DNA of 63,281 nt, filler included, from Hausera hauseri (lineage: Eukaryota): NCBI GenBank assembly GCA_046269625.1. It is 12 parts of 12 records of this genome, joined end to end, with 100 filler letters (N's around TTAATTAATTAA, not from the genome) between each part and the next. Parts side by side here need not be neighbours in the genome. Positions count along the whole stretch, not along the records: positions 49,134 to 53,809 come from JBJURY010479798.1; 11 more parts are not named here. One strand, given 5' to 3'. The notes beneath the pieces are model-generated. The model saw only the letters and a list, made by a program, of their open reading frames with translations. It was not told where the DNA came from and ran no database searches. The translations under genes and the position numbers were made by a program. Below are positions 7,048-63,281 of the stretch, piece by piece (positions within the stretch are counted from its first letter, which is position 1; each line of letters begins with the position of its first letter).

Positions 7048-7103
7048 GTGAGTATTTAAATGAATTTTATTTATTTCCAGCTCTTTGCAAATTTTCCTCA
7101 AAA

Positions 7104-20120: not shown

Positions 20121-20322
20121 TACCAATGTCAACGTGACACACAACGATATTGTATAAAATTTTCATCAAATTGTCTATTACAAATTGCGGGAATGATAGC
20201 AGCAAGTTTCGCTCGTGTCTGGATGGTGTTTTGAGCAAAGCAATAAAGTACGGCTGACTACGTTTAAATCGCATTTTTGGACGTATTGATTCTGAGACGT
20301 AGTTGTTTATAACCGTTGCCAC
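20121..20322 (-). pseudogene. Polinton small ORF (paralogue of 60497-60838)
   Basis: MATVINNYVSESIRPKMRFKRSQPYF is nearly identical to the ORF at 60497. Confidence 0.75.
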
Positions 20323-20499
20323 TGTGACGGTAATTTGCGTCTAGTTGTTGTTGTTGTTGTTTTTCGAAGCACAGGATTGATTGATCGCTTGACTGTAGCG
20401 GTTAGTTTTGAGACAAGTTTCTTGTCGGGCACCCGCTTGGTAGATTTACGTTTAACAATTGTTTTTCGAAAATTCTTTATTTTATCACAATTATGTCGT

Positions 20500-20850
20500 C
20501 GACTTTTGAATTTGTTTATAGACCTATACACCTTTCTGATTGAAAACGTCTGTTTGTACAAGCATGTCATCGGGACACTGTTGGGTAAAGTTTATGAACA
20601 AGTATCTGTGTGGCTCGGTCGTAGCATCATGATATGCATATATCAAGTAGGCTTGGTTTTGAGGAAATGCTTGTCGTGCAACATAATCAATGATAGTCTG
20701 ATCACGGGAATTTTTGAACAACAATGAATAGTATACGTTAAGATTTCTTGTTCGATGTTGTCCGCCCTGATGGAACATGTTTTGCATAATGAAAATAACA
20801 GACACATCACGGTGTCGTAAAATTTTCGTAAACAGGTTGATGAACAGGTT
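20500..20850 (-). pseudogene. Polinton packaging ATPase, C-terminal half
   Basis: LFTKILRHRDVSVIFIMQNMFHQGGQHRTRNLN...LFKNSRD...PHRYLFINF is the A32-like ATPase C-terminus. Confidence 0.85.
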
Positions 20851-20969
20851 ATTGAAATATACAACAAAACAATATACATAGGATATCACAGTTAGGATTG
20901 TCACAGTAACTGAACTGAACTGAACTGATTTGTCTGAACCGACAGAGCTCCAATTGTTTAAACATGCGT

Positions 20970-23900
20970 TTATTTCAGCCGCCAGTGTCCATACGCCCAA
21001 CTCTTATTTTGTCTCACCCACTTTCGCTTATCATCGTTACATGACAAAGCTACTTTCGCACTCGTTATTTTGTACAGCTGGTGTTCAATTGATCGGATGA
21101 TCGTTTGAGACACAACAGCCACTGATTGTCCTCCTTCTGCCGCTTCTTCACATATACGTCGATAATCACCGTGACTTAGTTCCGTCTGTTTCAGCTGGAC
21201 TGCTTTGCCCGCATTTTCGATCCACAGTCCGTCAGAAGTCTGTATTACTTTGGACGTGGGAATATCCATTCTTGATGCTGAACTCTGCCTTCACTCTCAT
21301 CCTTGAAGCAACTAATTTTGTTTGTGATGGCGTTGCTGTACAATGGATGATTCTGTGGGTAATTGGACGTGTCAAGTAATCCATCGTCCATCGTTTGTCG
21401 CAGTAGTTGTTCGCGATTGACGTTTCCCAGTTGCAAGAACAAACTATCTGTGGCACCGGAAATTATATTGATCTTGCATCCGCCGCCGCCGACGAACATT
21501 TGCCGGCAACGTGCCAAATCACGATAGTGCAGCTCATACATCCGCAACTTGCTCAAATCCAATACCACTTGTCCTGTATAACTTGGCCGGTCTAGTACGA
21601 CTTCTTCCCTGTTTAGTAGCACCGCAACTAATCCATCGGCAATGTGCATTGACCGCCAAAACTGTCTTCTGCTATACGTAACCAGCCGCTTTTCCGAGTT
21701 ACATAGGCGCATACTGAGCCGCTTTTTCAGATTCTCCACTGTTTTTCCGTACAGGGAATTGTTTTTCAGATTGTAGTAGTCCTTTTCGAACTTTGTACAA
21801 GCTACGACTCATTTCTCCGAATTTCCATCTATGTACGCCTTAAATATAGGCGACTGATCAAACCGTATTGCACGATGAAGCTGTGTGACGCATACACCGA
21901 GCTGCATGTAAAACTGTAGCAGACGCCAATGGACCACGTAATTCAGCTTCGGTCCATGCGTCATGAGCAGTTTCTTCACTTTTGAACCTGGCGGATATTG
22001 GTTAAATGGTGCGACCTGTAAATCGTCCAAACGTCATGCAGCTCATCTGATACCACGAGATAGACATCCATCAGGTATCCGACTAACCCTGCCATGTCTG
22101 TTCATGGTTGGTTGACCATTATATCGTCGAGATCTTGTCTGTAGACAACCCATTTGAATGAACCGTACGGCAAGGGTTGTGAAAGCGCCCAGCCGTACAG
22201 GTTATTAATATCGATATACAGCAGTGATGTGGTATGGTAGCATGGACCTGATATTTGTTGACAAATGTCATGCTGCCGTGAATACCAACATTAAACAGTC
22301 GGTACATTTTCGGGTCTTGCAGCAGCTCAGTGTCTTGATCCAGTGACATTATAGCTGACGCTCATCTAATTCTCGGTATGGAATAAAAGTTGAGTGGCTC
22401 TAGCCTATCTTCAGCCAACGCTTTCGCTCGAAACACTTGAAACACATCGGCTAATAAGTACACGTCCGGTTTAAGATACTGGTGCATGTAATTCAACATG
22501 TTTCTACAGCCGAGTTTTGTTTAACGCCTCTGTGCTTTCCGGTATTCATCCTCTGCGATACTTGTCCATCGCGGCGGTAATTCCTCTGCTGCCCGGAATC
22601 GCTCGTATGATGTTGCAAAGTCATGTGGAAATATGCCTTTGCTGCGTGAAATATGTGCGGAGAACTGCGTCAGTGCTATCGGCACATCTGGCAAGGCATT
22701 TAACAGCTTTGCCAATGATTTATTGAGAAATTGTAATGAATCAAAGAAGCGTACCTGTAACCGGTTTATAGAAGCAGACAGTGACAGGTATTTCTCCATC
22801 GTAGTCGGAATTACGGACAGTTCTCAGTGCGAAAATCCCTTTATTGCACATTTCAAAATATGGTGATAATCAAAATTCATGAAGTTATGAAATACCACTG
22901 GTAAGAATGGCCGCACACGCCTTGCCAAATTGCATGAATTACATGCTGCTCCGAGATATCGATCAGTAAAATGATCGTTATCCGGTACGAACCATTCCAG
23001 TGCGTCAAACGGTAATATTTTGTGGCACAGGTAACATTCATCTGTGACTGCAAACGTCAGGCGTTCGTATTCATTTGTCCAGATCAGATGTTTGGTACTA
23101 TTATCTCAAGACCACGGTGCGATTTCAGTTTCCACTATGGTTTGCAACTACTGCAAGAAATCGCCTACACAATTCCACCATGGAAAACATAATATTGAGG
23201 TTGACCTGCGGCATTTATTGGGACAACCAACATACCTACGGCGATTGGAACATGTTTTTGTCACACATGCTGTGCTGTGGTAAGATAGCTTCGATATAGG
23301 CATATACTACATATTCCGGACTGTCTGTTTTTGACAAATTAATGGACCTGAGTTCATGTTTGACGGGTGTGACATACATTGTGGTTCCTGACGAATTTTG
23401 TCTGCACAGAGTCACATGTTTCTCCTATTTTGTTTCCGACCTTAATCCATGAAGACATACAGAACACCATTTACAATGTATTTGTTTTTGTAGGAAATGG
23501 TTATGCTCCATGTTCAGTAGTCTATCCAGATTTGTCACCGAAACGTAGTGGTACTTTTCTTTCTGTTTCAGTAGCAACAAATTTACTGAGCAGCCATTTG
23601 GGTTTCAACTACGATAGATTATATCCACACGAGGATTTTTGTAAATTTCTTTATTCGCCGGTATTTCTACGATCGTGTTATACAGGAACATGGTGATTGC
23701 CAGTGTCGGATTACGCCATTCAAATGTCGGAATGGATTTCAGTTTCATTGGCATCCAGGCTTTATCTAAATCCAATTCGGAAAAATATTTCTGATACTGT
23801 TTTGGGCAAAATGCACTATGTCTGTCCACATTGTCATATTTCAATACCGCCAGAATACTGTAAAGAAAACAGTATTCATCTTTAGTATTTTTTACACTCA

Positions 23901-24495
23901 CTACCACCAGAAACTGCTTCAGAGCTGCAGGTGTCGGTACGAATGATCGTCCAAACAAATATATTATGTCACTCGACTTTGTTATGATAATGCCGAGGGT
24001 GACAATCTTTACAATTCGCCATCCATTACCATTTTCCATGTAATTGGCGATTTTTTCCTCGAGCTTTTCGCCAATCTTAGAGATAAAATTCTCGGTATAT
24101 GGTACAGCTCTATGTGACAGGTACCACTGCTTCCTGTCGCCTTGCACGTTTTCGAATTCTGCAAGTGCATAATACTGCACTTTGCAATTGTGTTGGAATT
24201 TGGCCACTTCAGATTCCAACCGGTTTCGCATAATGGATGGAGCATGTCTCAATTGCGTTGTTGTTGTTGCTGTTGTCGCTGACATGTTCACTTTTATATC
24301 CACGTACGATTTTTTCAGATCGTACATGACAGTAATGCGTGGTTCCTTCCCCTGTTGCTCCTGTTTCTGCTGCTGATGTTCCTTCTGCTGTTTTTGATTT
24401 CTGTTGTTTTGCAAGTATTTATCAAGGCTTGTTGATGCCTGACGTTTACTACTTGTTGAGAGAATACAGCTGCTGCTGCTTTTTGCTGCGTCCAT
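20970..24495 (-). pseudogene. Polinton/adintovirus protein-primed DNA polymerase B with endonuclease VII-like insert, decayed
   Basis: CFLYSILA; CYLC...DHFTDRYLGAACNSCNL; PVVFHNFMNFD; FFDSLQFL; KGIFPHDF; YIDINNLYGWA; KNNSLYGKTVEN; LDLSKLRMY; TDSL; KVALSCNDDKR; AYGHW. Confidence 0.92.
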
Positions 24496-24577
24496 TAATG
24501 TTTGTTTTTTTCGACCGCTTAAACTTGTTTAAGTGGCCATTGTGCTGATTATAAATTGTTCATAGTTTATTTGATCA

Positions 24578-24914
24578 TCAGCTAAAGAACAACAGGGACA
24601 TACATAGTCCCGTTGTGGTGCCATAGTATTGCTCCATTGCACTATGGCAACCACCAACCTTATGCACTTTATTGGTACAGTAACGTGGGTACGTGGGGCA
24701 ATGCACAACCATCATATTCTTTGACCGCGTGAACGGCCCGAGATGATACTTGTGCATCTCATAAAAGTCGACATATGGGCATTGCGTTGAAACACAGCAT
24801 GTTGGACACACATACGTGTCCCTGTCCACTTTGTAATATTTCGCCATCTGTTCATGGCACGGCACGTCTACATATATGAGAGAGACGCAATACATGGGAT
24901 ATTGCTTGCATTTC
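24578..24914 (-). CDS. Small Cys/His-rich Polinton protein, likely spliced
   Basis: 105-aa ORF with CPTC, CPY, HKYH, HCP and C..H motifs. On minus it is preceded by acceptor tttctcatttag near 24915. It lies directly upstream of pPolB. Confidence 0.4.
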
Positions 24915-26877
24915 TAAATGAGAAACAAATTAAAGTAAATGTTAAATGTCATACAAATATATATAAACTTATTTATAATTTAAATTAAAATTTACTTAAG
25001 TTACACTATATACCGTTCCTTCTATGATGGTAATGGTGGTGGTGGTTGTGGTCTCAAGGCTTAACTTACTCAGCTATAAGCATTTACCATTCTCAGCATT
25101 TAATTTGTATAAATTAAATGGAAGAGTATATTGAAAGTGAAAATCAGAGATTGACCGTGACATTTGGCCAGACATGTGTTTGATGTACAGTTTTTATATG
25201 GGCTCACAGAAGCGAGAATAATGAGCAGGCGAGAGTATACTGAAGTGATAGTTAGATCTGTCTTCGTAAAACGTATCGAGGATGGAATGAGACAAAAACA
25301 ACTACAANNNNNNNNNNNNNNNNNNNNNNNNNNNNNNNNNNNNNNNNNNNNTTAATTAATTAANNNNNNNNNNNNNNNNNNNNNNNNNNNNNNNNNNNNN
25401 NNNNNNNTTAGCTCTATTTTATCTTCTTTTTTTGCATGACAAGGCCTCTTTCAGACCGAATTGGCAAGAAAGGCGATAACTGTGAGAATTAATTTTGGTC
25501 TTAATCCACTCTACGCGCCCGTTTGAACAAGAATGTAGTAAAAGTTTAATCGTTTTCCGCATTCATCGCTGTTTTCTCCACTTTTGAAAAACGTATATCT
25601 AGGTTCCACTGTAATTTTAAATGTTTTGTGGGCATAAAGTATAATATGAAAATGTTGTTGAAATGCTCAGTATCATAACGTTTCTGTCATGAGATGAAAA
25701 TATTTCCAACAGACTTTCGAATAAAGTTCATTCCGAGAAATTACTTATTATTTCTTCTAAAATGAAATAAAGCTTGCTTGTCCTGATCCTATACGACGCT
25801 TCATTTCTAGACAGTCGATGTTGTTATTTCGCTTCAGCTTCAAATTAGACTTAACTTCATTACCATAATTTCATTACACGATAAACGCTCAGTCGAACAA
25901 TTCCTTATAACGAATTACTCCAAATAAACATCGTACAGTATAGTATGTCTCAATTTAGCCTTCTTTTCTTTCTTCTGTCCTAAGAAATTTTATAAGGCCA
26001 ATTATAGACGTGAAACGGCAATTTTTTAACTTCCTTCTTCAATTTTAAGTGCGAATTATGAAAACTATACGTTTTCTTGATCAAACCAAACAAAAAGAAA
26101 CCAAATAACCTGCGGCCGAAATTCTTCGCTCGTTTTAGCCAGCCACTTTGTAACGGAACTCATCTTTTCGTCTGAAAAATAAATAAATTTAAATAAAAAT
26201 TAAAATAAACAGTTATTTCTTTTATTAACGCAAGATTTCCGCTTAATTTATTTTCAATTAAATATAGGTAATATTATGTACATATATTTTTATTCCATTC
26301 TTCCGTGACTCACCGTGAGACAGAGTTTCCTCCAAGTTGATTAGTTTCCTGAGAAGTTCTTTAATTAGTTTTTATAAAAATATTTATTTATATTTTCCAT
26401 ATTTTTTAATTAATGATAGTAAGTTTTAATGTACATTAGGAAAATTACATCGACCCAATAAATGCGATATGTGGTTTTCATTATAAGACATTTTAATTAA
26501 AATATTGTGCCTTGAATACTATCCCCGTCGAAGTATTACTTCACTTCATATTCCATTCAAATTGTTATGTAATACATCAAGACACTTCGAAAAAGTTTTC
26601 ATCTATTATTCCCTTCGTTTGCGTGCCATCTCTATTCTGTCGAACTGAAAAATGTTCACCTATTCTGAAATTGCTATTGTGTTATCATTCGACTTCAAAA
26701 AGTTTTCTAAACACCGTAATATCTGAATATTAGATGGAACAAACGAACAAACAGTAAAAGACAAAAGATAAGACGTAACTTGAAAAGTGCGTTAAGTGAT
26801 AAACGACTTATTTTATTATGTAAACATAGTAAAATAGTTAAAATAAATTGAGCATTCAAACTAAATACCTTTCAGAA

Positions 26878-33050: not shown

Positions 33051-34131
33051 TTAACTAGAATGTCGCCAATGTAAATTCAACATAGCATCCTTGGGCAAAG
33101 ATGAGAGTCCCTGCTCATCCATATGTTTGTTATTTATCTTTTCTACCGATTTACTGTATCGGTCTCCTTGAGGCAATCTGTAAATCAGTGCGTCTATTTC
33201 GCATTGTTGACCATTGATCATGGTGAATTGATCCACAACGATTTTCGGAGTCCTCTTGATTTTGATTGATTTTGGAGAGGAAATTTTCTTGAGCCGCTTG
33301 GGAGAAGATGGAGAAAGAGAAGCAAAGGATGTTGAGAGTGTGGGTTCTTTTGGTGGTTTTTGTGAAAGATAATTTTCGCCATGATCAAGATCAGTTGATG
33401 GTGTGGCCATTGTTGTTTTGTTAGTTCTATCATCAGGACAAACGTCGTCATAGTATATATCTACAGTTTGATACGCTTTCAAGTAGGCTTTGGCTAATGG
33501 AAGGGCTCTCATGGAGAAACTTCTTGTTTGCTCCACTTCCATTGCGAAGATACGGGTGTTTTCTGAATTAAGAGATTTGTATTTGTCTATTAAGGGTTTA
33601 TAATACATAAGATCCCTTAGTCCTTGGACAAATAGGAGATCTATCTGGAATAGGTGTTCAATAGCATACGCCAACTGACATCCGATAAGTAATTTCCCTT
33701 TTATTAAACTCAATATGATTTTCCGAGCGTCGTAATAGTCAGTTTGACCTCTTACGTGTATTTCCTGAAGGCCGGTTAAATGGGTTTCGTAATTTTCTAT
33801 CTTTTCACGGGGAGTAATTAACTGATTCATAATCACGGATCCATGTAAGTCTAATATAGCAACTTCTATTGTGGATGCTATTTTCTGGGGTTGGAGAGCA
33901 AATATGGTGGCGATGACTAATTGATTTTCTTCTTTAACTATAGTATTTCGTCTAAATGAGATACCAGTTCTAATGTTTGGGATAGCAGATGTCAAGTCGA
34001 ATGTGGGCTTCGCGGTACTTGTTGGAATATATACATTTTCTTTTTGCATGCCTTCTATAGCTATTAGTGCTCTTTCCGTTTCGAGTCGAATTAAAAGCTT
34101 TCTTTTCTGTCTCAAGGTTGTATAAATACTG
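33051..34131 (-). CDS. LTR-element 3' accessory protein with inactive REX4/ISG20-like DEDDh fold (5' cut by linker)
   Basis: EVAILDLHGSVIMNQLITPREKIENYETHLTGL...LIKGKLLIG...GLRDLMYYKPL closely follows the REX4 pattern. DxE reads ATIF and the GH...ND motif reads GCQLAYA. Confidence 0.75.
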
Positions 34132-38792: not shown

Positions 38793-40360
38793 AGAATTAT
38801 TACGGAATGGCCTGGTTTGGAGGTGTCTAAAGCCACGCCGTCAACGATTGTGCAAGACTTGAAAGAATTGAGCATGTCTTGAGGTGGCTGGTTCTGTTGA
38901 AGTTGAGCTTGCATGAAAATCGGTGAAAATTAATGGAACTAACCGACCTAGATAAAATATCGGCAATTAAATTATTAACCACATTAATATGTTTAAGTTG
39001 AAGTTAAATATCAACAAGTATGATATCTGCCGTTCTTGGCGTGTGGAAGGGTGTTTTATAGCCATGATGTTAAGTAAGGGTTTGTGATCGCTTTGTATAG
39101 TAAAATGGCGAGCGACAAGTGGGGGGAAGAAATGCTTTAAAGCAAGCACGGCGGCCAATAACTCTCGATCGAACGTTGAATATCTAGTTTCAGGGGATGT
39201 TAGCTTACGAGCAAAAAATTCTAGTGGCTGATTTTCTCCTTTGTGGAATTGGTGAAGAACAGCACCTACTGCAGTGGTTGAAGCGTCTATGGTAAGGATG
39301 AGTTCCGCATCAGGTTTGGGGAAGGCGAAAATGTCGACGGTCTAAATTCCTTCGCGTAACTTATCAAATTTGTCTACCAATTCAGGTGTCCACTGGATTG
39401 GCTGATGCTTTTTGCCACAGCTTAAGTGTGCAATTGGTGCTGTCAATTCAGAGCAATATGGTACATATTTATGTACAAAGTGTAGTGTACCGAGGAAGCT
39501 GCGCATTTCGGTGGCCGTACGTAGTAGCTGGATATTCTTAAGGGCTTCAACGCGGTCTGGTTGAGGAGAGTGGCCGTCTGGTGAAACAACGTGGCCTAAA
39601 AAGTTGATGCGCTTTTTGAAGAAATGGCATTTGTCGAAATTGACTTGGAGATTATGGTGCTTAAGTCTTTGGAATATTGCACGAACATGTTCCTCGTGTT
39701 GTTTTGTCGAATACGGAACGATCAGAATATCATGTCGCTGAAAGGTCTGGGCGGCATTTCGCAAACCGATTGGCATGAACAGGTACTCGTAGAGAAAAAA
39801 GGAGTAGTGACAGCGGCTTTTTCTATATCTTCGGGTGTCACTTGTATTTGGTGGTATGCTTTGGCCAAATTGATGGTCGAATAAATGGTAGTTGAATTAA
39901 GATGATGCAGGATGTCCATAATGAGTGGCAAGGGGTACACATCCATGACTGTCAAGTTGTTTAACTTGCGGTAGTCACCGAATTGTATAAAAGTACCGTC
40001 CTTTTGTGTAAAACGTGTAAAGGTGACGACCAAGGAGATTTGGAACTGCGTTCAATTCTGGAGCGTTCTAGTTCAGAAAATTCGACTTCTACAGCCTGCA
40101 TACGACGAAGTCACAGTGGTCGTACCTTTTGGCGTATTGGTCGTTGATGCTGTGTAATTATGTGATGTACAGTTCTGTTTGTAGAGGTAAACGAACGATC
40201 TTTTATAAGTACTCGTGGACATGATGTGGTAAAGAATTTTTGTAAAGTTGTAGGCAACTGTGGTAGATTCGATGATGATGGCGAAACAGCTTGGGTACTA
40301 GCGGATGCGATTTGTGACTTGTTTAGTGATGTGCCGTCAAGTGGTATTTTGTTGAGATAC
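38793..40360 (-). mobile_element. Second copy of the CsRn1-like Gypsy (RT-RNase H), decayed
   Basis: High similarity to 13240-14850 (STQAVSPSS.NL.QLP, HQRPIRQKVRPL, LAKAYHQI, PIQWTPELVDKFDKLRE). Confidence 0.9.
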
Positions 40361-47328: not shown

Positions 47329-49135
47329 AGTTGACAGACTCGTTTTAGCGCAACATTAATAAAATAGATTCTTCTTATAGTTTTCATTTCCGAAATTCTT
47401 TCGACGAAAAATTACTTCAAACATTTATTTTGACCTTTCGGTAGAACTATTTAACATTTGACGAAAGTGTAAGTCAATCAGTTGTTACTCCATGGACTAA
47501 TTAGTAAATTCGTTTCATTATTATATGACATAATCCCTGGGAGTAAATGATTTAATGATGCATGTTTTCTCTAATTTCTTACAATGTGTTATCACTACGA
47601 ATAATTAATACGAATAGTTGAGAATATTTTTCACAGGATGCAAAATTATTTATAACTTTAATTAATTTGGAATGAAACTGTTTTGTAGCTAAATCAGTAT
47701 TCGATTGATGATTAGTTAATGTAAATCAATATTATTGTATTTCATTTGTATAATACACAATCAAATTATCATGACACACCAACACATTAAATTCGAACTT
47801 TGGCTGTTGAACGTCATGATTTCACTGAATATGCTAATTTCAAAAATTGGGCACGGGAATTCCATATTTAAACTAGAAATTTTGTGCACCATTTCTGAAA
47901 TCTATGTTTCATGAATATTTCATTCTGATAAACTTTTAACAAATCGATCGTTTAGACGAAAATATTTATCGATTAAACGTGACTACAACGGGTTCGGAAA
48001 TTTTGAAATCTATGTAAATTTTCAAATAGTTTTCGTTTATCAATGGGTTTATGTTAACATTTGTTGAGCAAATTGAGCGCTTTGGAGAAGGCCTTCTTAA
48101 TGTTACATCATTTTGCACTTCTTCAATTTCCCCCATAGCATGGAAAATTTCGTTTCATTTTTCAGCTAATATTTTACTAAAGTCGAATTTCCAGTTTGTC
48201 ATTCATGTTATGTCAAAGTACAATGTATTAGTCTAATTATCACTTACATCACTAATATCTCTTCCTTCTATATAAATATTAACTTTACAATTTGCACAAT
48301 CTTAACTAGAATAATTTTATCGAAAAATCCAAACTACTAAATCAAAACAAAAATGTTTTTTCAATCAAATTCATTATTTCACCCAACGGTCTGTGCTAAT
48401 CGCTGTAAAATTGACGATCAGTTTGTAAATAATTTAAAAAATTTCCCGTGATTGAAACCAAAAAAAAATATTGTTGATTTAAAACGTTTCACAAAACTAA
48501 TCGACGAAATGAACCATCTGGTTTTAAGCGTTTGTAAATAAATTACATCTGTCAGGTTTGGGATTCGTAAAATTTGAGGATCAGGAAAAAATATGTTGAA
48601 TTCTTCCACAAAACTTCACACAAATGAAATTCTAATTGACGGGTATTTGTTGGAGATTGGTTACTACAATGACAGTTCCCTTTCATTGACATACTGTCCA
48701 ACTTAAGTTCGAATATAACGATTCATAACATTCAAAGAAATGAACTAAATTGGTGCTTTGGATTTTAGTGACAATTGATCGATTAATAATAATTTAAAAT
48801 AATTTAAAATTCAATTTGAATTCTGAGAATTCTTCTAGTATGGAATTGTATTGATTTTGTCAATTCACGTGACTGAAATATTCTAAGTACTAAATTCAAA
48901 TTTTCTCTATTGATTTTTTTTTTTACTCCCTTCTTTTAATAACTTCTTGCAAGCGAGCAGATTTTACGCACAAGAATGCTAACACGTGGGAGGCTGGAAC
49001 AACGGGACGGGTTTAAGGCAGATGAGCCGCTTANNNNNNNNNNNNNNNNNNNNNNNNNNNNNNNNNNNNNNNNNNNNTTAATTAATTAANNNNNNNNNNN
49101 NNNNNNNNNNNNNNNNNNNNNNNNNNNNNNNNNTT

Positions 49136-49459
49136 CAGACGTTACGTAACGGTAAGTTAAAAATTAGTAGACAGTTTTATGAAAATATTGGACAGGAACG
49201 AATCAATGAATTAAATGAGCAAGACATACTGGAAAAGATGTTTGCCACAGGAATCACACGAGAGAAGGTAATAACGGCTACTGCCTACTTATCATATAAG
49301 GTAATTGTTATTAATTATCAGACACAAAATCTTAAGGAAATTGCGAGAAACATCAAAGTAATAGTGAAGGTTTTACGTGACACCCTGGAAAATTGGATGC
49401 AATGTAGAGGTGGATGGATACCAAGCCTAACGAATGTCAGAATAAGATCCGAAGGATGA
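49136..49459 (+). CDS. Bcl-2/Bax-like domain (BH1-BH2) inside a Gypsy element
   Basis: KMFATGITREKVITATAYLSYK resembles BH1 (F.DG.NWGR/ITRER.V). VLRDTLENWMQCRGGW resembles Bax BH2 LRERLLGWIQDQGGW, with similar spacing. Confidence 0.6.
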   Translation, partial: QTLRNGKLKISRQFYENIGQERINELNEQDILEKMFATGITREKVITATAYLSYKVIVINYQTQNLKEIARNIKVIVKVLRDTLENWMQCRGGWIPSLTNVRIRSEG

Positions 49460-51726
49460 TCATATGAAAAGCCTACCACAACACAACCTAATTCCACTAG
49501 ACAGGGTCTAGGTAGAATATTATTTATGGAAATATTACAATTATTATTAATAGCATCCATGTGTATGCCTAAAGCTATGGGAATAGTAGCCTATAATTGC
49601 TCAAAGCCCAAAGAAGGACAGAATTACTCTCTAGTGTACTTAGAAAAATGCCCTGAAGCTAATCCGTAACAGCTTACCACTACTGGCGGTCACCACTATT
49701 GGGTATATCAAGAATCGGAGTTTATTAAAGTTAAAATCACGGAATGTTATGTGAAGAAATCATTCTTTTTGTTCAACTGCGCGTACTATTCGGGAAATTC
49801 TGCCATTATTGAACCACCAACCCCTTTTGAACCTATAAGAATATTACGGGCAGAATGTCAAGACGCTTTTAAGATCGGAGTTATAACGACACAAAGCGCG
49901 CAAATATCATCAGTAAGACATAAGATAAAATACACTCAAATCTTCAGAGCATGAAGAATAGATAAAACAATGGAGGATACTTATAAAGGAGTAGATTACG
50001 ACGTTGGAAGTACCATTGCACCAAGTAGCTATTGAGGATTATCAAGTCTAATTAAAGGAATATGAAGGACTATTTGACTCAAAAACTAAACTCATGACGA
50101 CAGTGAGTGAATGTGAATTTGAAAGCGGTGAATGTGACACAGGAGATTCTAAGGTGACTTGAGAAGCATCTTCAAACCGATATCATTTGACATTATTAAA
50201 GGAAGGAAAATTCAACAAAACGGTAGGAAAATAGCAGAAAAATAAACAACAACCTACAAGGAAGGTAAAGAAGTGAAAATGACGGAAGTCGCGATGATAG
50301 TATACTCAGAAAATCCTGAAGAAATGATGCGCTTTAAAATGATCGGAACGACCAATAAATGTGATGAAGAAATGTGTAAAACGAATTATAAAGGTATATA
50401 TCTCTCACATAAGGAAGTGGCTCAAGATAAAAAAGATATAAAACTAACACAATACTTTGATAATAAGGTCGACTTTTTAATCAATTACGTCAGAAAAGAA
50501 ATCAGAAGTTTATATAGAGAGATAACAATAAAGGAATGTAAATTAAATTATGAAATAATCCGCAATAAGATGGCCTTAGTAATAACGAACCCAGATATGT
50601 TGGCACCGGTCATGACATTCGGAGATGGAATAATTGGAAGAGTAATGGGTGGGGTGTTGATAACCATTGAGTGTATGAAGACAGAAGTATCAATAAGACC
50701 AACAGAAGAATGTACATCAGAATTTATAACACGGAACCTCGATACATAATGCCAGTAACAAGAATATTATTAGACGCCAACGCTAAACCCACTCAGATGG
50801 ATAATTGTACATTTAATGTCTCCGATGTTTATACCAGACGATAAATGGATCCGAATGCCCAAAAGAAAACCGGTATTAAAACCAGAAACGTTAAGTTTGA
50901 TTAATTTGCAAAGAAATCAGAAGTTTGAACCATTAAATTGCATATCGCAAGGAGGGATTTATACGCAACAAAATTTAGAAAACTGCCGACGAATGTTGTT
51001 GTTTCCTCAGCAAAGACAATGAGTCATAACGGAGTTGACGAGAAGGGTAATGTGGGACGGAGAAGGTTCACCACAATAAGAAAATTTGGTGGGAAAAGAT
51101 TATTTGGAGAAAGTAACAAGGAGTGTAACGGAAAAGATGTGGGGAAAATTCTTATATTTTGGTCAAGCAGAATCAGGATTTTTAGCCATATATTTATCAT
51201 TGGTGCTTTACGAACAATATTCACTGCACTTGATAAAGCTTATGGAATTCATGCAGCAGTCGGATGTTCATGGAAAATTCTCATAGAGGTAATACCGGCA
51301 GTCGCTAGTTGTTTTCTAGCAAATCACAGCGCAAGATGGAAAAGAAAAATACTTAAGGAAGGAAATAACGATGTTGAGAAGAATTCACCATATAGTACTC
51401 TAAACGGTATAAATGACAATGACGACGACAATTCAGATACTAAATTTAAAAATAGTAAATATCTAACGAAGTTTAAACGATTGTCATTGAAATCACGAAG
51501 ACAGAGGTATAAGCGAAAACTGGTTACTGACTTACTCCAGTTAGACTCTGCACTCGAATATCACGGGCAAGTTTATAATGAACCAATGTTATTGAATCCA
51601 TCAGCTCCTCAATATGTGAAACATGGACGAATGGATCCCATGTACCAAGTTTTACGAATGAAACAAAAGTATGATGAAAACCCCGCACCATATAATCATG
51701 AACCCACATGTAAAATAGATAAATAG
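49460..51726 (+). pseudogene. Chuvirus-G-like envelope glycoprotein, decayed
   Basis: Signal peptide then IVAYNCS...SLVYLEKC; ECKLNYEIIRNKMAL..TNPD; GRVMGGVLITIEC..VSIRPTEEC; SQGGIYT...MLLFP; WGKFLYFG; TM and YGIHAAVGCSW. This is the chuvirus/retrotransposon G pattern. Confidence 0.75.
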
Positions 51727-51739
51727 ACCCCAGTCCGTT

Positions 51740-53809
51740 ATGAGACCAGAGATAGGTATCGAAGTGAACGGATACCCACTAACTGCATTAATAGATACGG
51801 GGTCCACAAATACTATAATTGGAAAGAGTCAATTACCTAAAGAACTAATAAAGAAGTTGCGAAAACCAACGGAAACTTTAATTAATATCGGAGATTTTGG
51901 TACGGAGGAGGAAATAAAAGCGGTCCTGGATGCCAAGATCAAAATATCTGACCAGACGATAAATCACACGATTAGAATAGCCAATAATCCAATTAATGAA
52001 ATACTGATTGAATGCGGTGTATTGCATCAAATAGAGAACACGTACATAGACGTAAAAACTGGTCAGCTCAAAACATTTAGCAAAGATCAATACGAATGTT
52101 TAGTTTCACTAATGGAGGATGTTATAATTCCGTCGCACTCTGAAATAGTAGTACCTGGCTGACTAGAATGTAAATCACCAATAATATATGTACATTTGAA
52201 CCATTCCCACGAATGATGGAGAAATACGACATTCTTGTCGCACCGCATGTCGATAAAATAAGAGATGGAAAATTCATTTGAGAATTTGCAATACTGGAGC
52301 TAAAGAAAAATGACTAAGAAAGAATATGAGACTTGTACAGGTAATGGCTATTGAAGAAATATCAAAGGCAACGGTCAATTCGGTTATCTCAGAGGTAGAT
52401 AAAATTTAGAAAATGATGGCGGAAAATTTGAAGAAAGAAACGAATAAAAATAAAGAAGAAAAGAGAGTCACCGGCATTAACTGGGAAGAAAAATTACGCG
52501 ACTGCAATATTTTAACTAAGAATAAAAAAGGTATGTTAATTCAGCTGCTAGAAAAGAACGGTAATCGATTCGCTCAGAATAATTATGACCTAGGAACATG
52601 CCATCAAATTAAAAGACAGGCAAAATAAATCTATAAAGAAACGACCATACAGATTAGCATACGATAAAAAGGAAGAAGCCCGAAAAATTATAAAGGAAGT
52701 GACAAAAATAAGATAATACGATCAAGTTGTTCCTCTTGGACGGCCCCAGTAGTAATGGTTAAAAAGGAAGATGGAACAATGACATTCTGTGTAGACTATA
52801 TAGAAACCGATACATATCCATTACCAAAGATTGATGAAATATTAGATAAATTACATGGCTCAACAATATGTACCACCATTGATTTACAGAAAGGGTACTG
52901 GCAGGTCGAAATAGAAGAGGAAGATAAACCGAAAACGGCTTTTTCGATAGTGAAGTATTATGGGAGTTTAATAGAATGCCGCTTGAATTAAAGAATGGGC
53001 CGCCAACTTTTCAAAGAGGAACGGAGTTATTACTTTTAGATGCACCACATGCTATGGCGTATATTGATAACACATTCATTGTATCATCAGATTTACAACA
53101 GCATTTGAAAGGCTTACAGGACCTTTTTGATAGATGTGAAATAATTGGTTTGAAAATAAATCCAAAGAAATGTACGTTTGCTCAAACCGAAGTTGACTTT
53201 CTCGGATACAGAGTCGATAGATACGGTGTGAGACCTCATGATAGGCTACTAGGCAAAATAGAAGATTTTCCAAAACCAACTACAATTAGCGAATTACGTC
53301 GATTTCTAGGACTTCCGAATTACTATTGAAGGTTTGTAAAGGATTTTAACAAGATAGCCATACCACTCTACAAGTTGCTACGTGAGGACATAGAAGAAGT
53401 ATTATGGACGAATGATTGTCAGAATGCTTTTGTGAATCTAAAACAAAGATTATTAAGTGCTCCGATTATAATTTATTCAGATATGACTAAGCCGTTCATA
53501 TTAACAACCAATTCCAGTGACTATGGAGTTGGAGCAGTATTGTCACAAAAAGATGAAGATGGCAAAGAACATCCGATTGCATATGCGTCAAGAAAGTTAA
53601 ACAAACACCAAAGGAAATACTCTGTTATCGAAAAAGAGCTATTAGCAGTAATCGTTGCTCTAGAGGTGTTCTCACCTTATATTAGCGAAAATAAACCTTT
53701 AGTAATATATACCGACCACCGGCCGTTACAGTGGCTGAAAAAGCATGAGAATCTTAGCAGTAGGTTATTACGATGGGCTTTAAAACTCCCGCCATATACA
53801 TTAGATTTC
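51740..53809 (+). mobile_element. Gypsy pol (protease, RT, RNase H), decayed
   Basis: ALIDTGS; SSWTAPVVMVKK; DLQKGYWQV; YID(N); RRFLGL; NSSDYGVGAVLSQ; YSVIEKELLA; TDHRPL; RLLRWAL. Confidence 0.93.
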
Positions 53810-54227: not shown

Positions 54228-56312
54228 ATGTCCGACAGATTTCTTCAATCAAAAATGATCAAGGCAGACGTAGATCTGGACGCAACATCAGAGTCAGATT
54301 CAGATACTTCAATCGACACAGTGATCCTAAATCCTAAAAGGAAAGTGCTTCCATCAACACATTTCACCTTTTCAAATCCAACTCAAGGAGTACAGTTTCA
54401 AAGAGAAATTTGTAGCAATAATATACGTAAATCAATATCAATCTCAAATGAAATAACCAAATCGCGACTTCAATCAATGGTAGAAGTAAGAAAACCTGCT
54501 CCATCTTACAACGATATATCTCCCATGAAAAGAGATGAAATTATGCTCAATTTGCAAGAATTAATCAGTGAACAGGAAACTCTATGGCCATGGGACGCAG
54601 TAGCAAAAAAGTATGTGAAGATATTACATGGGACTAATAATCATCTACCCCTTGGATTTTACAAAACTATTAAAAACATGATGGAAGAAACAAATGAAAT
54701 TTTTTATCCAGAGGCAAGAATGATTGATAATGCTCTAAAAGTTACCACTACCGAAGAAAGAATGTTCCGTATCATAAAATTACTGACACCAGTCTATAAC
54801 GAAAATCTACTGAACACGCTTAAATATTCAGCGGTATCGAACTGTAGTAAAATAATCGTGCATTTGATCCAAGGACAGATACAATTACGAGCAGAGAAGG
54901 AATCATTTGTCTCGAATCAATTCCCTTATCTATTACAAGCCTATACCACAATGGAAATGCAAAATACTATTGTTAAACACTCAATTTATTTCCGTACAGC
55001 AACAGTTCCTACTATAATAGCAATAGAGATCTGTCAAAAGTTCAATTTGTATAGAAATTTGGAACCGCCAATGTTCTACAAAACCCCACAAGGGAAGATA
55101 GTTCAAAATTTTCAGCTAACAAAAGCTGACAATTATCGTTATTTAGCCACCTCTTTGGCCTATTCAACAAGAGGTAAAATGCTTCCAGTAGAAATCATCA
55201 TAGCCGATAAAACAGGGTTGATTATTTATCATGATTATGTGAATCCTAGAATGAAGATAGATAATACCAACGAGCACTATCATGGGCTTAATAAACAAAT
55301 ACTAAGTCAATCAACGGATGAAGAGGAAGTTAGATATGAAGTCATGAAGTACTTATTTGGGCACATTGTAATTAGTGTAAACACCATTGCAATCCTGCAA
55401 GCCCTACAGATACCTTTTGATATATTACACGGTATCATAGATTTATTTGCAGCAAAAAACTCGCTGAATCGATATCAGGATGCCAATGAAAAAATATGTC
55501 TTAGTAAACTACCAACGGTTTACGGATTCAACCAAGACTTTCCTAAGAACGCGGAATCCATAATAAGTATGGTCGTAAATATTCATAAATTAGTCTCAGA
55601 ATCCTGCACTAACGAAACCTGGATGATGGATTGGGAACCTCCTCCCAATAATCTAATCCATAATGGATCTTTTCATCTCATTGATGATAAATATCATAAC
55701 AACTACGTGGAAGAAAAGTCAGAAAGTAACGCTCCAACAGTTGCTCAATGCATTAAAGATTATGTAATAAGAAACCAGCAAAAGAAAAACCAAACCACAG
55801 ATCAAGTCCAACAACAAGGGATTAGATTATCCTTAATCCTGTACGAAAATGAATTTAGAATAATCAATGTTAGATTTTTACACCAACCCACAGTCCAGAT
55901 AAACAAGGATCAATGTATATTAACTAATTACAATCTTGGACGATTGGTTGGACTAGTATTTAAGCATGCTAATCAAAGCACGCTACACCTATGTACCATA
56001 GGTATAGAATATGAAATTATTAGGGAATTGAATCATGATCTTATAAAAAATATCCAACCAATATTTCTACAATTGGAACCTAAACCACTTCCTAAACCAA
56101 GGAGTGGTAAGCCACTGATCTGTACATATAACCTCAAAATGTTGCTATACCTTAATTGTGAAGAATACGTATTAGAAAATCTGTACAACATGACAGCAAA
56201 TCAGGAGCTAAACCAAACTCCTATTCAGACGAACCAAGTCATAATCCAGTTAACTCACAAGTCAGCAGAACAATATCCAACACCAAACCCAACCAGTTCC
56301 AGTCAAGGATAA
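54228..56312 (+). CDS. LTR-element 3' accessory protein with inactive REX4/ISG20-like DEDDh fold (open frame)
   Basis: ATG follows acceptor cttcttttcag (54217). PVEIIIADKTGLIIYHDYVNPRMKIDN..HYHGL...LFGHIVI...GIIDL; DxE reads ATSL. Paralogous to 7104-9086. Confidence 0.7.
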   Translation: MSDRFLQSKMIKADVDLDATSESDSDTSIDTVILNPKRKVLPSTHFTFSNPTQGVQFQREICSNNIRKSISISNEITKSRLQSMVEVRKPAPSYNDISPMKRDEIMLNLQELISEQETLWPWDAVAKKYVKILHGTNNHLPLGFYKTIKNMMEETNEIFYPEARMIDNALKVTTTEERMFRIIKLLTPVYNENLLNTLKYSAVSNCSKIIVHLIQGQIQLRAEKESFVSNQFPYLLQAYTTMEMQNTIVKHSIYFRTATVPTIIAIEICQKFNLYRNLEPPMFYKTPQGKIVQNFQLTKADNYRYLATSLAYSTRGKMLPVEIIIADKTGLIIYHDYVNPRMKIDNTNEHYHGLNKQILSQSTDEEEVRYEVMKYLFGHIVISVNTIAILQALQIPFDILHGIIDLFAAKNSLNRYQDANEKICLSKLPTVYGFNQDFPKNAESIISMVVNIHKLVSESCTNETWMMDWEPPPNNLIHNGSFHLIDDKYHNNYVEEKSESNAPTVAQCIKDYVIRNQQKKNQTTDQVQQQGIRLSLILYENEFRIINVRFLHQPTVQINKDQCILTNYNLGRLVGLVFKHANQSTLHLCTIGIEYEIIRELNHDLIKNIQPIFLQLEPKPLPKPRSGKPLICTYNLKMLLYLNCEEYVLENLYNMTANQELNQTPIQTNQVIIQLTHKSAEQYPTPNPTSSSQG

Positions 56313-58777: not shown

Positions 58778-59674
58778 NNNNNNNNNNNNNNNNNNNNNNN
58801 NNNNNNNNNNNNNNNNNNNNNTTAATTAATTAANNNNNNNNNNNNNNNNNNNNNNNNNNNNNNNNNNNNNNNNNNNNTTTCGTTTCCAGACAGTCGCCCT
58901 GCAGAAAGTCGCCATTAGAAACTTTTTCTATTTGTTGGACAGGTTCTGTTTTCGTTTCCAGCAGTTTAACATTAGAATTGCCATTTTTGTAGCCAAACAA
59001 CCACGACCAATCTGAACTTTCATCATTCTTACAATCATCATCATTAAGTAGAATCGTTTTATCGTCGTTTTTCATGGCAGTAATGTCTGAATGAGCATGT
59101 AATGGTATTTATAGTTTGTTGTGCAATGTACATTATTTTGATTCACTAAAACATTTATGTGGTTTTTAATTTTAATAATAATCGTTTCATAGTCCACTGG
59201 CCGAATACAGAGTACAACAGCTTTTGCACTGCTAAGCACACTCACACAAAGTGGGCGAAACTACGTAAGTCAAGTGCAGGAAACAGTTCGAATTAATACA
59301 TACATTTAGTGGCCATTGCTCCTTTATACAGATTGATTGTTTGGTAGTTTAACTGAATCGTTACTGTTGTAGTTTGAATTTAATCAATGACAATTCCGAA
59401 TGGTAGTAGTTTACTGTTGTCAGCTTTGACTGGTTTACGACAACCCATAAAACGACACTTTCCCAATTGAAATATGATGCATGTAAAATCCGGTGGACAC
59501 TTGAGTACATACTGCCTCGGCTTCTATTCATTAATGTCACACTCGGTAACATGTCCGCGAGTGTTGATATTATCTAACATTATGGAAACAGTGTTTATAC
59601 TATAGCTATTTATATGTGCGTGTAACACGATTATAAACAAATCTTGTGGTAAGGAAAGGTTGTATTATTACTAG

Positions 59675-60310
59675 ATGAAGCTGCAGAATGATGCAATGTT
59701 CCAGATTTTAGGCCCCAGTAGAAGTGGCAAAACATACTTTATGTGTAAACTATTGCATAATTACAAAGCCGTGTTTCATTCACCGCGGCACAATCGCATT
59801 TATTTGCATCAGGGTATTGGTGATGGTAAGTCCGGTTTGATGCATCGGGAATTTTGTAAATTAAAATCGATAACGGTAATTGATGGGTTTGATGAGAACT
59901 GGTCCGGACGATTACACAATGGTGACGTTATTGTCATTGTCGATTTATTTCAAGAGGCAACGAAACAATCGGACTTCAACAATCTGTTTACGAAGATTGA
60001 GGACACCGTTGTGTGACGGTTATTTTCAATACGCAAAACATATGCCATCACGGCGGACAGCATCGAACAAGAAATCTAAACGTACACTATTTGGTGTTGT
60101 TCAAAAATCTCCGTGATCAGGTTCTCATTGATCATTTTGCACGACAAGCATTTCCTTACAACCCAGCCTACTTGATAAATGCATATTACGATGTTACGAC
60201 CCAGCCACAAGGATACTTGTTCATCGACTTTATACAACAGTGTCCGATAACACGCGCGTACAAACAAACATTTTCAATCAGAAGGGTGGTGTATGTGTCT
60301 ATAAACAAAT
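59675..60310 (+). pseudogene. Polinton packaging ATPase
   Basis: Walker A GPSRSGKT, VIVIVDL, LFTK, QN..HHGGQHRTRNLN; frameshifted near 60000. Confidence 0.9.
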
Positions 60311-60496
60311 TCGAAAATCGACAAAATGATTGTGATAAAATGAAGAATTTCCGAAAAATAATTGTTAAACGTAAACCTACCAAGGGCTGGCTGGCGGCAA
60401 GAAACGAGTATCAAAACGAACCGCTACAGTCAAGCGATTAATCAATTCTGTGCTTCGAACAAAAATAGGAGCAGCTAGACGCATATTACCGTCACG

Positions 60497-60838
60497 GTGG
60501 CAACGCTTATAAACAAATACGTCTCATCAGCATCAATACGTCCAAAAATGAGATTGAAACGTTGTCAGCCGTACTTTAGTGCTTTGCTCAAGGCACCTAC
60601 GAGACATAAGCGAAACATTCTGCGATCATTACCACAGTTTGTAGTAGACGATTTGATGGAAATTTTATACAATATCGTTGTGGGTCACGTTGACATTGGT
60701 AGTGGAAAGCGGAATTTACTAAAGTATCGAAAACGACTAACTGGCCTTGCTAAGTCTCGTAGTAAACAACTGAAACGGGAAGTCATGTACCAGCAAGACG
60801 GTGGATTCCTTGGTGCAATTCTACCGGTTGTCATGTAA
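60497..60838 (+). CDS. Polinton small virion/core-like protein
   Basis: Lies between ATPase and integrase and ends QQDGGFLGAILP, the typical Polinton GG-hydrophobic motif. Confidence 0.6.
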   Translation: MATLINKYVSSASIRPKMRLKRCQPYFSALLKAPTRHKRNILRSLPQFVVDDLMEILYNIVVGHVDIGSGKRNLLKYRKRLTGLAKSRSKQLKREVMYQQDGGFLGAILPVVM

Positions 60839-61015
60839 TTACTGGGTAGACTCATTGGTTCTACAGAATAGTATAAACAATGACGGTACGTGTATGATTA
60901 TTCGGCGATATGGGTGCATGATTATCATCATTTTGCCCCAGTTTACCGAATCTTTCATTTGCGTTTCGTTTTAATTGCTATAATGCTAACAAATACTACA
61001 TCATCGATAACAACG

Positions 61016-61870
61016 ATGGGCGACGTGTGGTTCGATCCGCGTCATCCCGTCGGGTATACTGGCGTCAATAAACTGGCAAAGACTGTCAAACAGACTTGGC
61101 AACCGACCCAACGTTGGCTCGGAAAACAGTTAGCATACAGTCTAAACAAACCGATAAGAAGGCGGTTTCCAACTCGTGCATACCGTGCTGCCGTCGTAAA
61201 TAACGTTTGGCAAATGGATCTGATGGAAATGATTCCGTACGCCAGCATCAAAGATAAGTAGCGGTATGTGCAGACATGCGTTGATGTGTTTAGTCGTTTT
61301 GCACGTGCAATTGTCGTGAAATCTAAATCCGGTAAAGAGATTGCCGACGCTGCCCAGACATTGATACAATAACAACAACCGAAGCATTTACAAACGGATT
61401 TGTGTAAGGAATTCTACAACGCCGACGTTTCAGCGCTCTTGAAACGGTTGGACGTAGACCACTACTCGGTGTTTTCCCAATACAAGGCTGCACTCATTGA
61501 ACAATTTAATCAAACTCTATATAGTTGATTAAACAAATTCTTTACGAAGCAAGGCAACAAACACTGGGTAGTTGTACTGCCGGATATTATTCATGCATAC
61601 AATCATTCAACACATCGTAACATCAATGGATTACGACCGGTTGACGTAATCGATGATTTGGACATGTGGTTTTATCAAAACCAACGAGGACGACCAATTA
61701 AACGCTCAAAATATAAAATCAGTGATTACGTGCGCATTTCGAAAATAAGTACGATGTCATTCTTTAAGAATTTCAATAAGAACTGGAGCGACGATGTTTT
61801 TTGCATTTAGGCAATTAACACAAAACAAACACTTGTCATGCGGTGACATTGAAAGGTAGTATGAAAATAA
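61016..61870 (+). pseudogene. Polinton retroviral-like integrase
   Basis: FDPRHPVGYTG, RRRFPTR, WQMDL, VDVFSRFA, LQTD..KEFYN, KAALIEQFNQTL, YNHSTH, DYVRISK, NWSD. Confidence 0.9.
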
Positions 61871-61899
61871 CGTACAACAAGACTGTTACTAAAACCAAA

Positions 61900-62746
61900 A
61901 CACATTCTTGTCCTCTGACACTTAATCGCAATAAAATAACAGTTGAAGAATCGGCCATTTGCACGCCCGGTAAAAATTACGGTGTTTTTTATTTTAGGGG
62001 AATACTTATATTTTATGGCAGATTTTGAATTTTCTGCTACTCTGAGTCCCTTAAGATGGCACAGAAATTTGGACTCAAAAATGCAGAGTACAGAGGTACA
62101 AATATTAAAAGTTAAAATACAGTTGCTACTAGATTAAGTCCCGTATATTACCAGACAACGGTGAAATTTACCTATACAACAGAAAGGGTATCAACGTCAT
62201 GCGTATCGATTGGCGACAATGTCTATTGTGAATCTTCAGCACAGCTCTGTCAACACTTTTCAAATCAAAAGTACAAGGCGATATTTAAAGTTTTGGAGTC
62301 AGAGACAAATGGGTATATTAAATTTTAACTGGTTAAGGATATTGTTGACATTTTATTGGACAAAGCTTTGGCCATGGTATAGAGTTTTGAAAAACAGCGG
62401 TTTGAGCATCGAAGACGGCGGCGGCGGCACATGTTGCAACACTCAAACCCAAACTGAAAACGGGATGTACATTTAAGTGAATGTTACTGAACCGATTTTT
62501 GTTGGTGGAGTACGTGTACCGCTACTTCGTGCAATTTATCCGGAAAGCAGCAAGTATACTGCTGGCAACAATGTCACTGTCAAACTCGATAATCCAATGT
62601 ACCTACCTGTGGCATCTATATCTATAAACAATGTTGAAGTCAGTATCCGATGTGATACGGGCTACCTTATTGAATTTCCGTACGGTACCACAACCAGTCT
62701 AACTCTTCATTTCCGTCGGATCCAACAACAACAACAACATGATTGA
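61900..62746 (+). pseudogene. Polinton minor capsid (penton) protein
   Basis: C-terminus PLLRAI...NPMYLPV...IN.VEVSIR.DTG..I.F..GTTTSLTLHFRR. Confidence 0.75.
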
Positions 62747-63103
62747 TTCCCAAATCGTTTTCATTTACAGTATGCCCCAGCAGGGTGGTGAACTGTCGTA
62801 TTTCGTTGGTAAACAGTATGGCTCTAGATGGTTGCGTACATTGGCACGTTTAGCATTTCCGGTGTTAAAGCGTATCGGTGCCGTGGCAGCAAAAACAGCA
62901 TAGGACGTACTATATGAAAACAAATCGATTTGAACATCGCTGAAGGAACACGCCCTGTCGGAAATAAAAAGTTCTGCACCGGGAGTCGTTGAGTCAGTCA
63001 AAAAACGATTCGTTGGCAGTGGCTTGATGAGAAAACGTGGACGTGGTAGATCAGCTAGCTTTTCAACTATAAGCAATCGTCGTCGTCATACGATTTTCGA
63101 TTG
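62739..63103 (+). pseudogene. Polinton core protein (pVII/pX-like)
   Basis: QQGG...QYGSRWLRTLARLAFPVLKRIG...GSG...RKRGRGR..RRRR basic tail; has internal stops. Confidence 0.6.
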
Positions 63104-63139
63104 ATTGATTGATTGATTGACAGACAGACAGACAAACAA

Positions 63140-63281
63140 ATGGCATTTGCAAAATCTGAATTGTGTATATTTGACAAAGCAGAGCAACAAGTTGTTATCT
63201 ACAATGCAGCATTTGAAATCTACACCGTTGATTCGGTTTCAAAGGACGATAACATTGACATTCAATTCAACACTATGACAT
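63140..63281 (+). CDS. Polinton/adintovirus major capsid protein, N-terminus (runs off window)
   Basis: MAFAKSELCIFDKAEQQVVI matches the KSELDLF..P.TQ..I start of Polinton capsids, in the expected position. Confidence 0.7.
   Translation, partial: MAFAKSELCIFDKAEQQVVIYNAAFEIYTVDSVSKDDNIDIQFNTMT

Follow-up and report, generated by a model that had tools for sequence, protein, structure and literature searches.

Domain order and state of the copy

The window analysed here is a stretch of 63,281 nucleotides from Hausera hauseri (GenBank assembly GCA_046269625.1) that consists of 12 short contigs with N-TTAATTAATTAA-N linkers between them, and contigs adjoining in it are therefore not neighbours in the genome. 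One entire contig (JBJURY010479798.1, positions 49134-53809), bounded by such linkers, is occupied by an internal fragment of a single decayed Ty3/Gypsy retroelement on the plus strand, on which all of its features described below lie; gag, integrase and long terminal repeats (LTRs) are not on the contig. Along these 4.7 kb a Bcl-2-like domain, an internal signal sequence, a class III envelope glycoprotein (G), a protease (PR), a reverse transcriptase (RT) and an RNase H (RH) follow one another collinearly. With stops read as X, the Pfam matches come in the same order, namely Bcl-2 (E 6e-4 over the whole frame), Monjiviricetes_fusion (E 9e-50), RVP, RVT_1 and RT_RNaseH, which agrees with the order Bcl-2-like segment, glycoprotein and PR-RT-RH given in an earlier note on this DNA. 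The succession PR-RT-RH together with Gypsy-type RT and RNase H assigns the element to Ty3/Gypsy.

Frameshift-aware alignment against intact relatives mapped about 12 stops over the whole copy, together with 11-12 changes of frame. Between the Bcl-2-like domain and the membrane anchor of G there are 8 stops (at 49457, 49667, 49952, 50049, 50160, 50232, 51020 and 51077) and 5 frameshifts (near 50000-50022, 50246-50274, 50723-50728, 50804-50840 and 51194), and pol carries 4 stops and 5-6 frameshifts, to which the frame change between the G tail and the protease is additional. The active-site motifs of RT and RNase H are degenerate, and that of the protease is intact. The contig is a broken and likely dead internal fragment, and the earlier picture of a near-intact copy with one stop and one frameshift is contradicted by these counts.

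Upstream of the predicted start of mature G lies a putative internal signal sequence (about 49508-49588; hydropathy peak 1.82), and of the 19 relatives inspected 18 likewise have a hydrophobic segment before the [AG][YF]DC motif of the G start (P0216 was not parsed). The ectodomain (49589-51160), which contains 7 of the stops and 4 of the frameshifts, is of the chuvirus-type, gB-like class III kind and matches PF24664 (Monjiviricetes_fusion) in three collinear pieces covering positions 3-130, 254-400 and 429-551 of the 653 in the profile (E 4e-11, 9e-18 and 3e-19, respectively). All 17 parsed relatives have 14 ectodomain cysteines, at least 11 of which are retained in the copy, and this invariance suggests selection on a folded fusogen. 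Since herpesvirus gB (E 2e-13) as well as chuvirus and chu-like glycoproteins (best E 3e-40) were matched by the structural model of G from the relative P0002, the fold of G is that of a class III fusogen. The chuvirus-G-like glycoprotein of the earlier note, which had called for comparison with viral class III fusogens, is thus recovered by profile in the copy and by structure in a relative. A word-based search for homologues of a G piece returned none among 159 candidates, and scans of viral contigs gave no loci. The ectodomain is followed by a single membrane anchor, which contains the frameshift near 51194, and a weaker amphipathic segment (51161-51330); in the 17 parsed relatives the anchor has free-energy (dG) scores of -2.1 to 3.2, compared with 3.7 to 13.9 for the next hydrophobic segment, on a crude scale. 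A charged, variable linker (51331-51723), predicted to be cytosolic and contained in the open frame 50929-51726, leads from there to the protease, and relatives carry unrelated linkers of varied lengths at this place.

The retropepsin protease (51719-52100; Pfam RVP E 5e-9) has kept its DTG motif. Its open frame overlaps that of the G tail at 51719-51726; the latter ends in a TAG at 51724-51726, and 13 nt on, at 51740, the protease frame has its first ATG, so that the short distance reported earlier stands, unlike the single frameshift reported with it. Further downstream come a conserved but broken segment (52101-52330) that aligns to three of the relatives introduced below (L001, L002 and P0007), and RT with the connection domain (52512-53400), which is likewise broken, with RVT_1 in two frames and a degenerate active-site motif at 53051-53074. 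RNase H (53405-53809; RT_RNaseH E 3e-38), the first catalytic motif of which is degenerate (53498-53527), closes the series, and the contig stops short of the integrase, which in relatives comes after RNase H.

Intact relatives and phylogeny

A HMMER search with the region 49136-52159 as query found 471 proteins at E <=0.001, the best of which are long open reading frames (ORFs). Among the best 20 of these 471, G is followed by a protease domain in 11 and also by RT and RNase H in 5, and P0151, P0216, P0235 and P0244 are likewise polyproteins running from G into pol. Related elements were also found at five metagenome loci. A 3,703-codon ORF at one of them, L002, comprises Gag zinc knuckles, a ubiquitin-like domain (Ubl), G, PR, RT, RH and integrase (IN), and the arrangement at L001 (3,426 codons, open at the 5' end) and L005 (2,693 codons) is alike. 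Moreover, a single unbroken ORF spans Ubl, Bcl-2-like domain, G, PR, RT, RH and IN in L001, L002 and P0216, including Gag in the latter two, and Bcl-2-like domain, G and PR also share one ORF in P0001. P0003, which at the 5' end is the relative nearest to the copy, has zf-CCHC, ubiquitin-like and Bcl-2-like domains and G in one frame. Gag lies upstream of env in P0003, L002, L005 and P0216, the ubiquitin-like domain lies upstream of Bcl-2 in P0216 (PF11976, E 0.0015), P0003, L002 and L003, and an ankyrin domain is present in P0151 and P0216. MATH and BIR domains are absent from the Pfam matches listed for the relatives scanned, and no LTR pair was found in the sequences of L001, L002 and L005. 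The element is thus a single one with env upstream of pol, and the one polyprotein that had earlier been considered possible is encoded in intact relatives by an uninterrupted single ORF.

In a tree of RT and RNase H, the copy and 12 G-bearing elements fall on one side of a branch and 34 other sequences on the opposite side (support 92/97), the outgroups being 33 sequences chosen from the 120 that were listed out of 730 long RT matches. Likewise, a G tree made by a quick method separates the copy and 19 G of the polyprotein type from 30 others, which were chosen from 150 matches with shorter G, one of them Pao-linked (Shimodaira-Hasegawa-like approximate likelihood ratio test 95). The subgroups P0017, P0035 and L005, P0235 and P0244, and L001, L002 and P0216 appear in both trees. 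A search for RT in long polyproteins, in which gene models with multiple RT dominate, gave 4 sequences with PF24664 among the 120 listed, one of these 4 being in the query's own cluster; no sequence among the 120 was named Burro.

These results indicate that the contig is very probably a broken internal fragment of a likely high-copy GAG-ENV-POL Ty3/Gypsy element resembling Burro, an element of planarians considered below, whose intact relatives carry Gag, the ubiquitin-like and Bcl-2-like domains, class III G, PR, RT, RNase H and IN in one frame. This reading builds on the domain order and the breaks as observed, on the single ORF of the relatives and on the fold class that G has in one of them. 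Several points tell against it. The G model was made from the natural relative P0002 (pLDDT 79.6) and not from the copy itself, and the calls of signal and topology rest on hydropathy and the crude dG scale, on which the scores of the signal segment are moderate (-1.0 to 7.6). In the RT-RH tree the bootstrap of 92 is below the cut-off of 95 and the branch of the copy is long (1.49). The two trees cover the copy, its relatives and the matches named above, and the comparison with Burro is drawn from the published description of that element. As to copy number, 9,079 contigs of run X1 fall on the stretch at >=80%, a contig depth that is not a copy number.

Two further features of the relatives may be recorded here. 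Several aspartyl-protease-like domains occur in one ORF in P0151, P0004, L001 and P0235, with up to 7 such stretches in P0151. Some of these relatives bear ankyrin domains or C2H2 fingers as well, and additional membrane-spanning segments lie beyond the integrase. P0007 (HBK71150.1), a full G-PR-RT-RH-IN polyprotein, is labelled as a protein of a Flavobacteriaceae metagenome-assembled genome and is probably a eukaryotic contamination of the bin.

The Bcl-2-like domain

The contig start truncates the Bcl-2-like domain, of which the C-terminal two-thirds (49136-49456) are present; the BH1 region in them is degenerate, and the BH2 motif reads W-x-x-x-x-GGW. This uninterrupted frame is weakly Bcl-2-like (PF00452, E 1.6e-5), its 25.8 bits lying below the family cut-off of 31.4 bits, and its best sequence match in the PDB is BOK (E 0.014). 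A model of its 107 residues (pLDDT 73) gave Foldseek matches that all belong to the Bcl-2 family (37 of the 37 listed; template modelling scores 0.45-0.68), the best E value being 0.06 and thus above 0.001. In VIA, cellular and viral Bcl-2 chains reached Z 7.0-7.5 over 87-98 residues, with an unrelated chain on top (Z 7.6 over 72 residues) and all Z below 8. Thus, the comparison with Bcl-2 proposed earlier for 49136-49459 was positive as regards the family of the matches and fell short as regards their significance. Identity to the copy is 47% in P0003, and the domain stays in frame across divergent elements at 19-47% identity; the GGW of BH2 is invariant in all five aligned sequences.

Pro-survival members of the Bcl-2 family have the canonical BH1 motif NWGR. 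This motif is degenerate in the copy and in all four aligned relatives, which makes a classical BH3-binding inhibitor less likely and does not lower the fold assignment. For the Bcl-2 region of P0003, a word-based search found no cellular homologue among 169 candidates and the ESM Atlas gave no usable match. These two negative results and the degenerate BH1, like the sub-threshold Pfam, Foldseek and VIA values, speak against the assignment; nevertheless the tests, each weak, are mutually concordant and point to a Bcl-2 helical fold with a BH2 motif.

A profile built from the copy and three relatives placed a Bcl-2-like segment directly before G in 8 of the 25 sequences searched (3 profile seeds, 3 strong matches and 2 weak matches of 12 bits), the maximum among 125 shuffles being 5.7 bits. 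The segment was undetected in the other 17, some of which are partial or accessory ORFs, and P0004, P0005, P0006 and P0244 have low-complexity sequence in its place. Since several G-bearing relatives do without it, the Bcl-2-like domain appears to be optional cargo.

Alternative explanations

As stated in the earlier note, the Bcl-2-like segment and the start of signal and G share one frame, with one TGA (49457-49459) between them. This stop is absent at the equivalent site in P0001, P0002, P0003, P0012, P0216, L001 and L002, and P0003 aligns across it in a single high-scoring segment pair at 45% identity; it is most likely the result of decay. Alternatively, the TGA, the frame change before the protease or both could be sites of programmed readthrough or frameshifting that set the ratios of Gag-Bcl2, Env and Pol, and it speaks for such recoding that a polyprotein yielding its parts at 1:1:1 is unusual among retroelements. 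Moreover, L003 is open over about 1,400 codons except for one stop, which is also a TGA (L003 3058-3060) and also lies in the linker from the Bcl-2-like domain to the signal segment of G. However, the two stops stand at unlike offsets (13 residues after BH2 in the copy and 20 in L003) and in unlike contexts, neither is followed by RNA structure (z 0.34 and 0.22), and L001, L002 and L005 have neither a stop upstream of G nor a frame change before PR. A stop in this linker occurs in one of the four DNA loci covering the region, which constitute the only unbiased sample since relatives from protein databases cannot display a stop, and in a copy with about 12 stops one in the linker is unremarkable. 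We regard recoding as highly improbable. A chance juxtaposition or nesting, in which a host Bcl-2 pseudogene and either a chuvirus-derived G or an env of the Pao/Anakin type came to lie beside an ordinary Gypsy pol, would fit the heavy breakage of the copy, the breaks at both junctions, and the occurrence of stand-alone (P0086) and Pao-linked G of the same Pfam family (PMC7642597, as far as available). Yet many relatives keep the identical order within one ORF, and the same group is picked out by the G tree and the RT tree; since both G and RT of the copy group with the polyprotein set, its parts are not separate nested elements. The contig contains no repeat longer than 26 nt and is even in composition (G+C fraction 0.32-0.39, with an A-rich coding strand), and further contigs of run X1 cross both junctions: the junction between G tail and protease is spanned by a 664-nt record, and that between Bcl-2 and signal by a 327-nt record, gap-free and with a divergence of about 15%. 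Eleven contigs of run X1 lack the stop at 49667. Nesting of G and pol, which the earlier note had named as the outcome that would overturn its view, was rejected on the single ORFs of the relatives, the concordant trees, the lack of long repeats and the junction-spanning contigs, and the juxtaposition as a whole is extremely improbable.

A different kind of objection concerns function. The upstream domain could be a relic, derived from Bcl-2 or merely helical and having no role in apoptosis, in an intracellular element whose G is vestigial or serves membrane targeting. The degenerate BH1, the failure to detect the domain in 17 of 25 sequences and its replacement by low-complexity sequence in four would accord with this, as would the attribution of the reported anti-apoptotic activity of Burro1 to its RING-BIR region (PMC13465017, second-hand and from the portion available). 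The maintenance of the domain in frame at 19-47% identity across divergent elements, and of all 14 G cysteines in every one of the 17 parsed relatives, argues in the opposite direction. We consider a relic unlikely, with a chance that is still appreciable.

A possible mechanism

For the preferred reading, a Burro-like element with a single polyprotein, the simplest topology deduced from the sequences would comprise a cytosolic Gag-Ubl-Bcl2 part, a lumenal G and cytosolic PR-RT-RH-IN. In an intact element the Gag-Ubl-Bcl2 part would be synthesised in the cytosol, the internal signal sequence would then direct G into the lumen of the endoplasmic reticulum, and host signal peptidase would cleave before the [AG][YF]DC motif. 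The one anchor would halt transfer, leaving PR-RT-RH-IN in the cytosol again, where the enzymes would be released by the protease of the element. The distance from BH2 to the predicted cut of G is 51-87 residues in the six relatives in which BH2 was located, and cellular Bcl-2 proteins carry a C-terminal anchor. Because of this position of BH2, the signal segment would stay on the upstream product as a C-terminal anchor and could provide the Bcl-2-like domain with its tail anchor. Finally, trimers of G may act as the fusogen in spread from cell to cell, and death of the host cell may be delayed by the Bcl-2-like domain.

Tail-anchoring of the Bcl-2-like domain by a leftover signal sequence is possibly a new point; the idea is not mentioned in the available passages of the literature, which came from searches not aimed at it. 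If the mechanism is true, Gag, the envelope and the enzymes of a Gypsy element all come from a single polyprotein with two membrane crossings, and a death regulator is anchored by the signal sequence of env. Polyproteins crossing the membrane twice are familiar from alpha- and flaviviruses. It may even be, although we rate this as a speculation with rather low odds, that flatworms harbour true enveloped viruses in the form of active members of this clade, each made as a single polyprotein whose env signal doubles as tail anchor of a captured Bcl-2. Such a membrane-bound death brake would have been gained and lost across the clade and would be separate from the IAP (inhibitor of apoptosis) module of Burro1.

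Other contigs of the window

Three other contigs carry exonuclease ORFs (RNase_T, PF00929) at 54660-55634 (plus strand), 33444-34073 (minus strand) and 1125-1481 (minus strand). They are homologous to an accessory ORF that L001 (10617-12107) and L002 (12085-13473) carry downstream of their polyprotein, and these contigs are probably 3' parts of related elements. The region 6261-9086 is similar to the RNase_T ORFs by eye and gave no tblastn match. Gag-like and zinc-knuckle pieces at 16993-17241 and 17845-17901 match the N-termini of P0003, L002 and L003 and are possibly a 5' part of a related element. Two direct repeats of about 500 nt (282-771 and 2958-3451; 79-91% alike and 2.68 kb apart) flank minus-strand ORFs for an exonuclease-like and a membrane protein. 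Related Gypsy pol fragments that are inverted and 79-88% alike are found at 13241-14853 and 38793-40352, the second of which the RT tree places outside the group of elements with G. The contigs 20121-25307 and 58878-63281 have common segments that are 85-87% alike, with an integrase-like match at 61214-61639; the look of their ORFs is Polinton/Maverick-like, which we take as a candidate label. On the minus strand, a 168-codon open frame at 45467-45973 matches Autophagy_act_C (Pfam, E 9e-20) and is presumably ATG10-like.

Comparison with known systems

Burro/GYPSM1 elements are described in the available part of PMC6431247 (Arkhipova and Yushenova 2019) as giant gypsy-like LTR retrotransposons of planarians, with an internal region of up to 25 kb (more than 30 kb with LTRs), in which BCL2 is followed by an in-frame env and then by PR. 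Their env matches fusion glycoproteins of mononegaviruses and PR-RT-RH comes next, as on the contig studied here, so that the resemblance to Burro suggested in the earlier note is confirmed by the published layout (PMC6431247). Further likenesses are the PF11976 domain upstream of BCL2 and the ankyrin domain, here found in the relative P0216, and the very many copies, including decayed fragments with stops and frameshifts such as those described from Dugesia japonica (PMC6431247). The accessory domains given there for Burro are Ubi2/SUMO-like (PF11976), MATH, BIR/IAP and ankyrin, whereas MATH and BIR are missing from the matches listed for the relatives of the copy. The ORFs of L002, P0216 and P0244 have 3,700-4,060 amino acids, in contrast to 4,873-5,140 in Burro, and the copy differs in its single protease and in the shortness of the linker from G to RT. 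The segment 52101-52330 occupies the place that is termed dUTPase-like in Burro, a call made by HHpred (PMC6431247), and PF00692 is not among the Pfam matches listed for it. As far as the published description is available, the copy resembles Burro in the part of the layout that lies on the contig. Since this layout was already known, the copy itself adds little.

The earlier statement that errantiviruses place env 3' of pol does not hold generally, as GAG-ENV-POL errantiviruses of the gB type, which are not monophyletic, have been reported from Nematoda, Bryozoa and Platyhelminthes (PMC13524379; Chary and Hayashi 2026, as far as available), among them six elements of Schmidtea in the Platyhelminthes C1a group (Smed_errantivirus_1-6). 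They share with our element the position of env upstream of pol, the gB-like class III fold and an ectodomain between signal and anchor. The motif [VI]YQE, which covers the VYQE-type motif of G in the copy, occurs in 6 of 229 envelope rows of PMC13524379, all of them from Schmidtea, and TNYKGI occurs three times in the available supplement, the two listed occurrences being Schmidtea rows. The likeness to the Schmidtea errantiviruses is one by motif and by eye, and the copy studied here is not intact. Going by the motifs of the element, its host is likely a planarian. Neither Burro nor Bcl-2 occurs in the available main text of PMC13524379. Chuvirus glycoproteins in LTR retroelements are also known from Anakin, a group of mosquito Pao/BEL elements (PMC7642597, as far as available). 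However, Anakin belongs to Pao and not to Gypsy, and G of the copy sides with the polyprotein type, apart from the 30 shorter G, one of which is Pao-linked. A 2026 study cited in the available part of PMC13465017 is said there to assign Burro1 an anti-apoptotic role through RING-BIR.

In summary, our analysis joins two literatures, that on Burro, with its Bcl-2 and in-frame env, and that on the GAG-ENV-POL gB-type errantiviruses of flatworms, and it adds a diverse set of intact relatives, which have or lack the Bcl-2-like domain and constantly keep the 14-cysteine fusogen.

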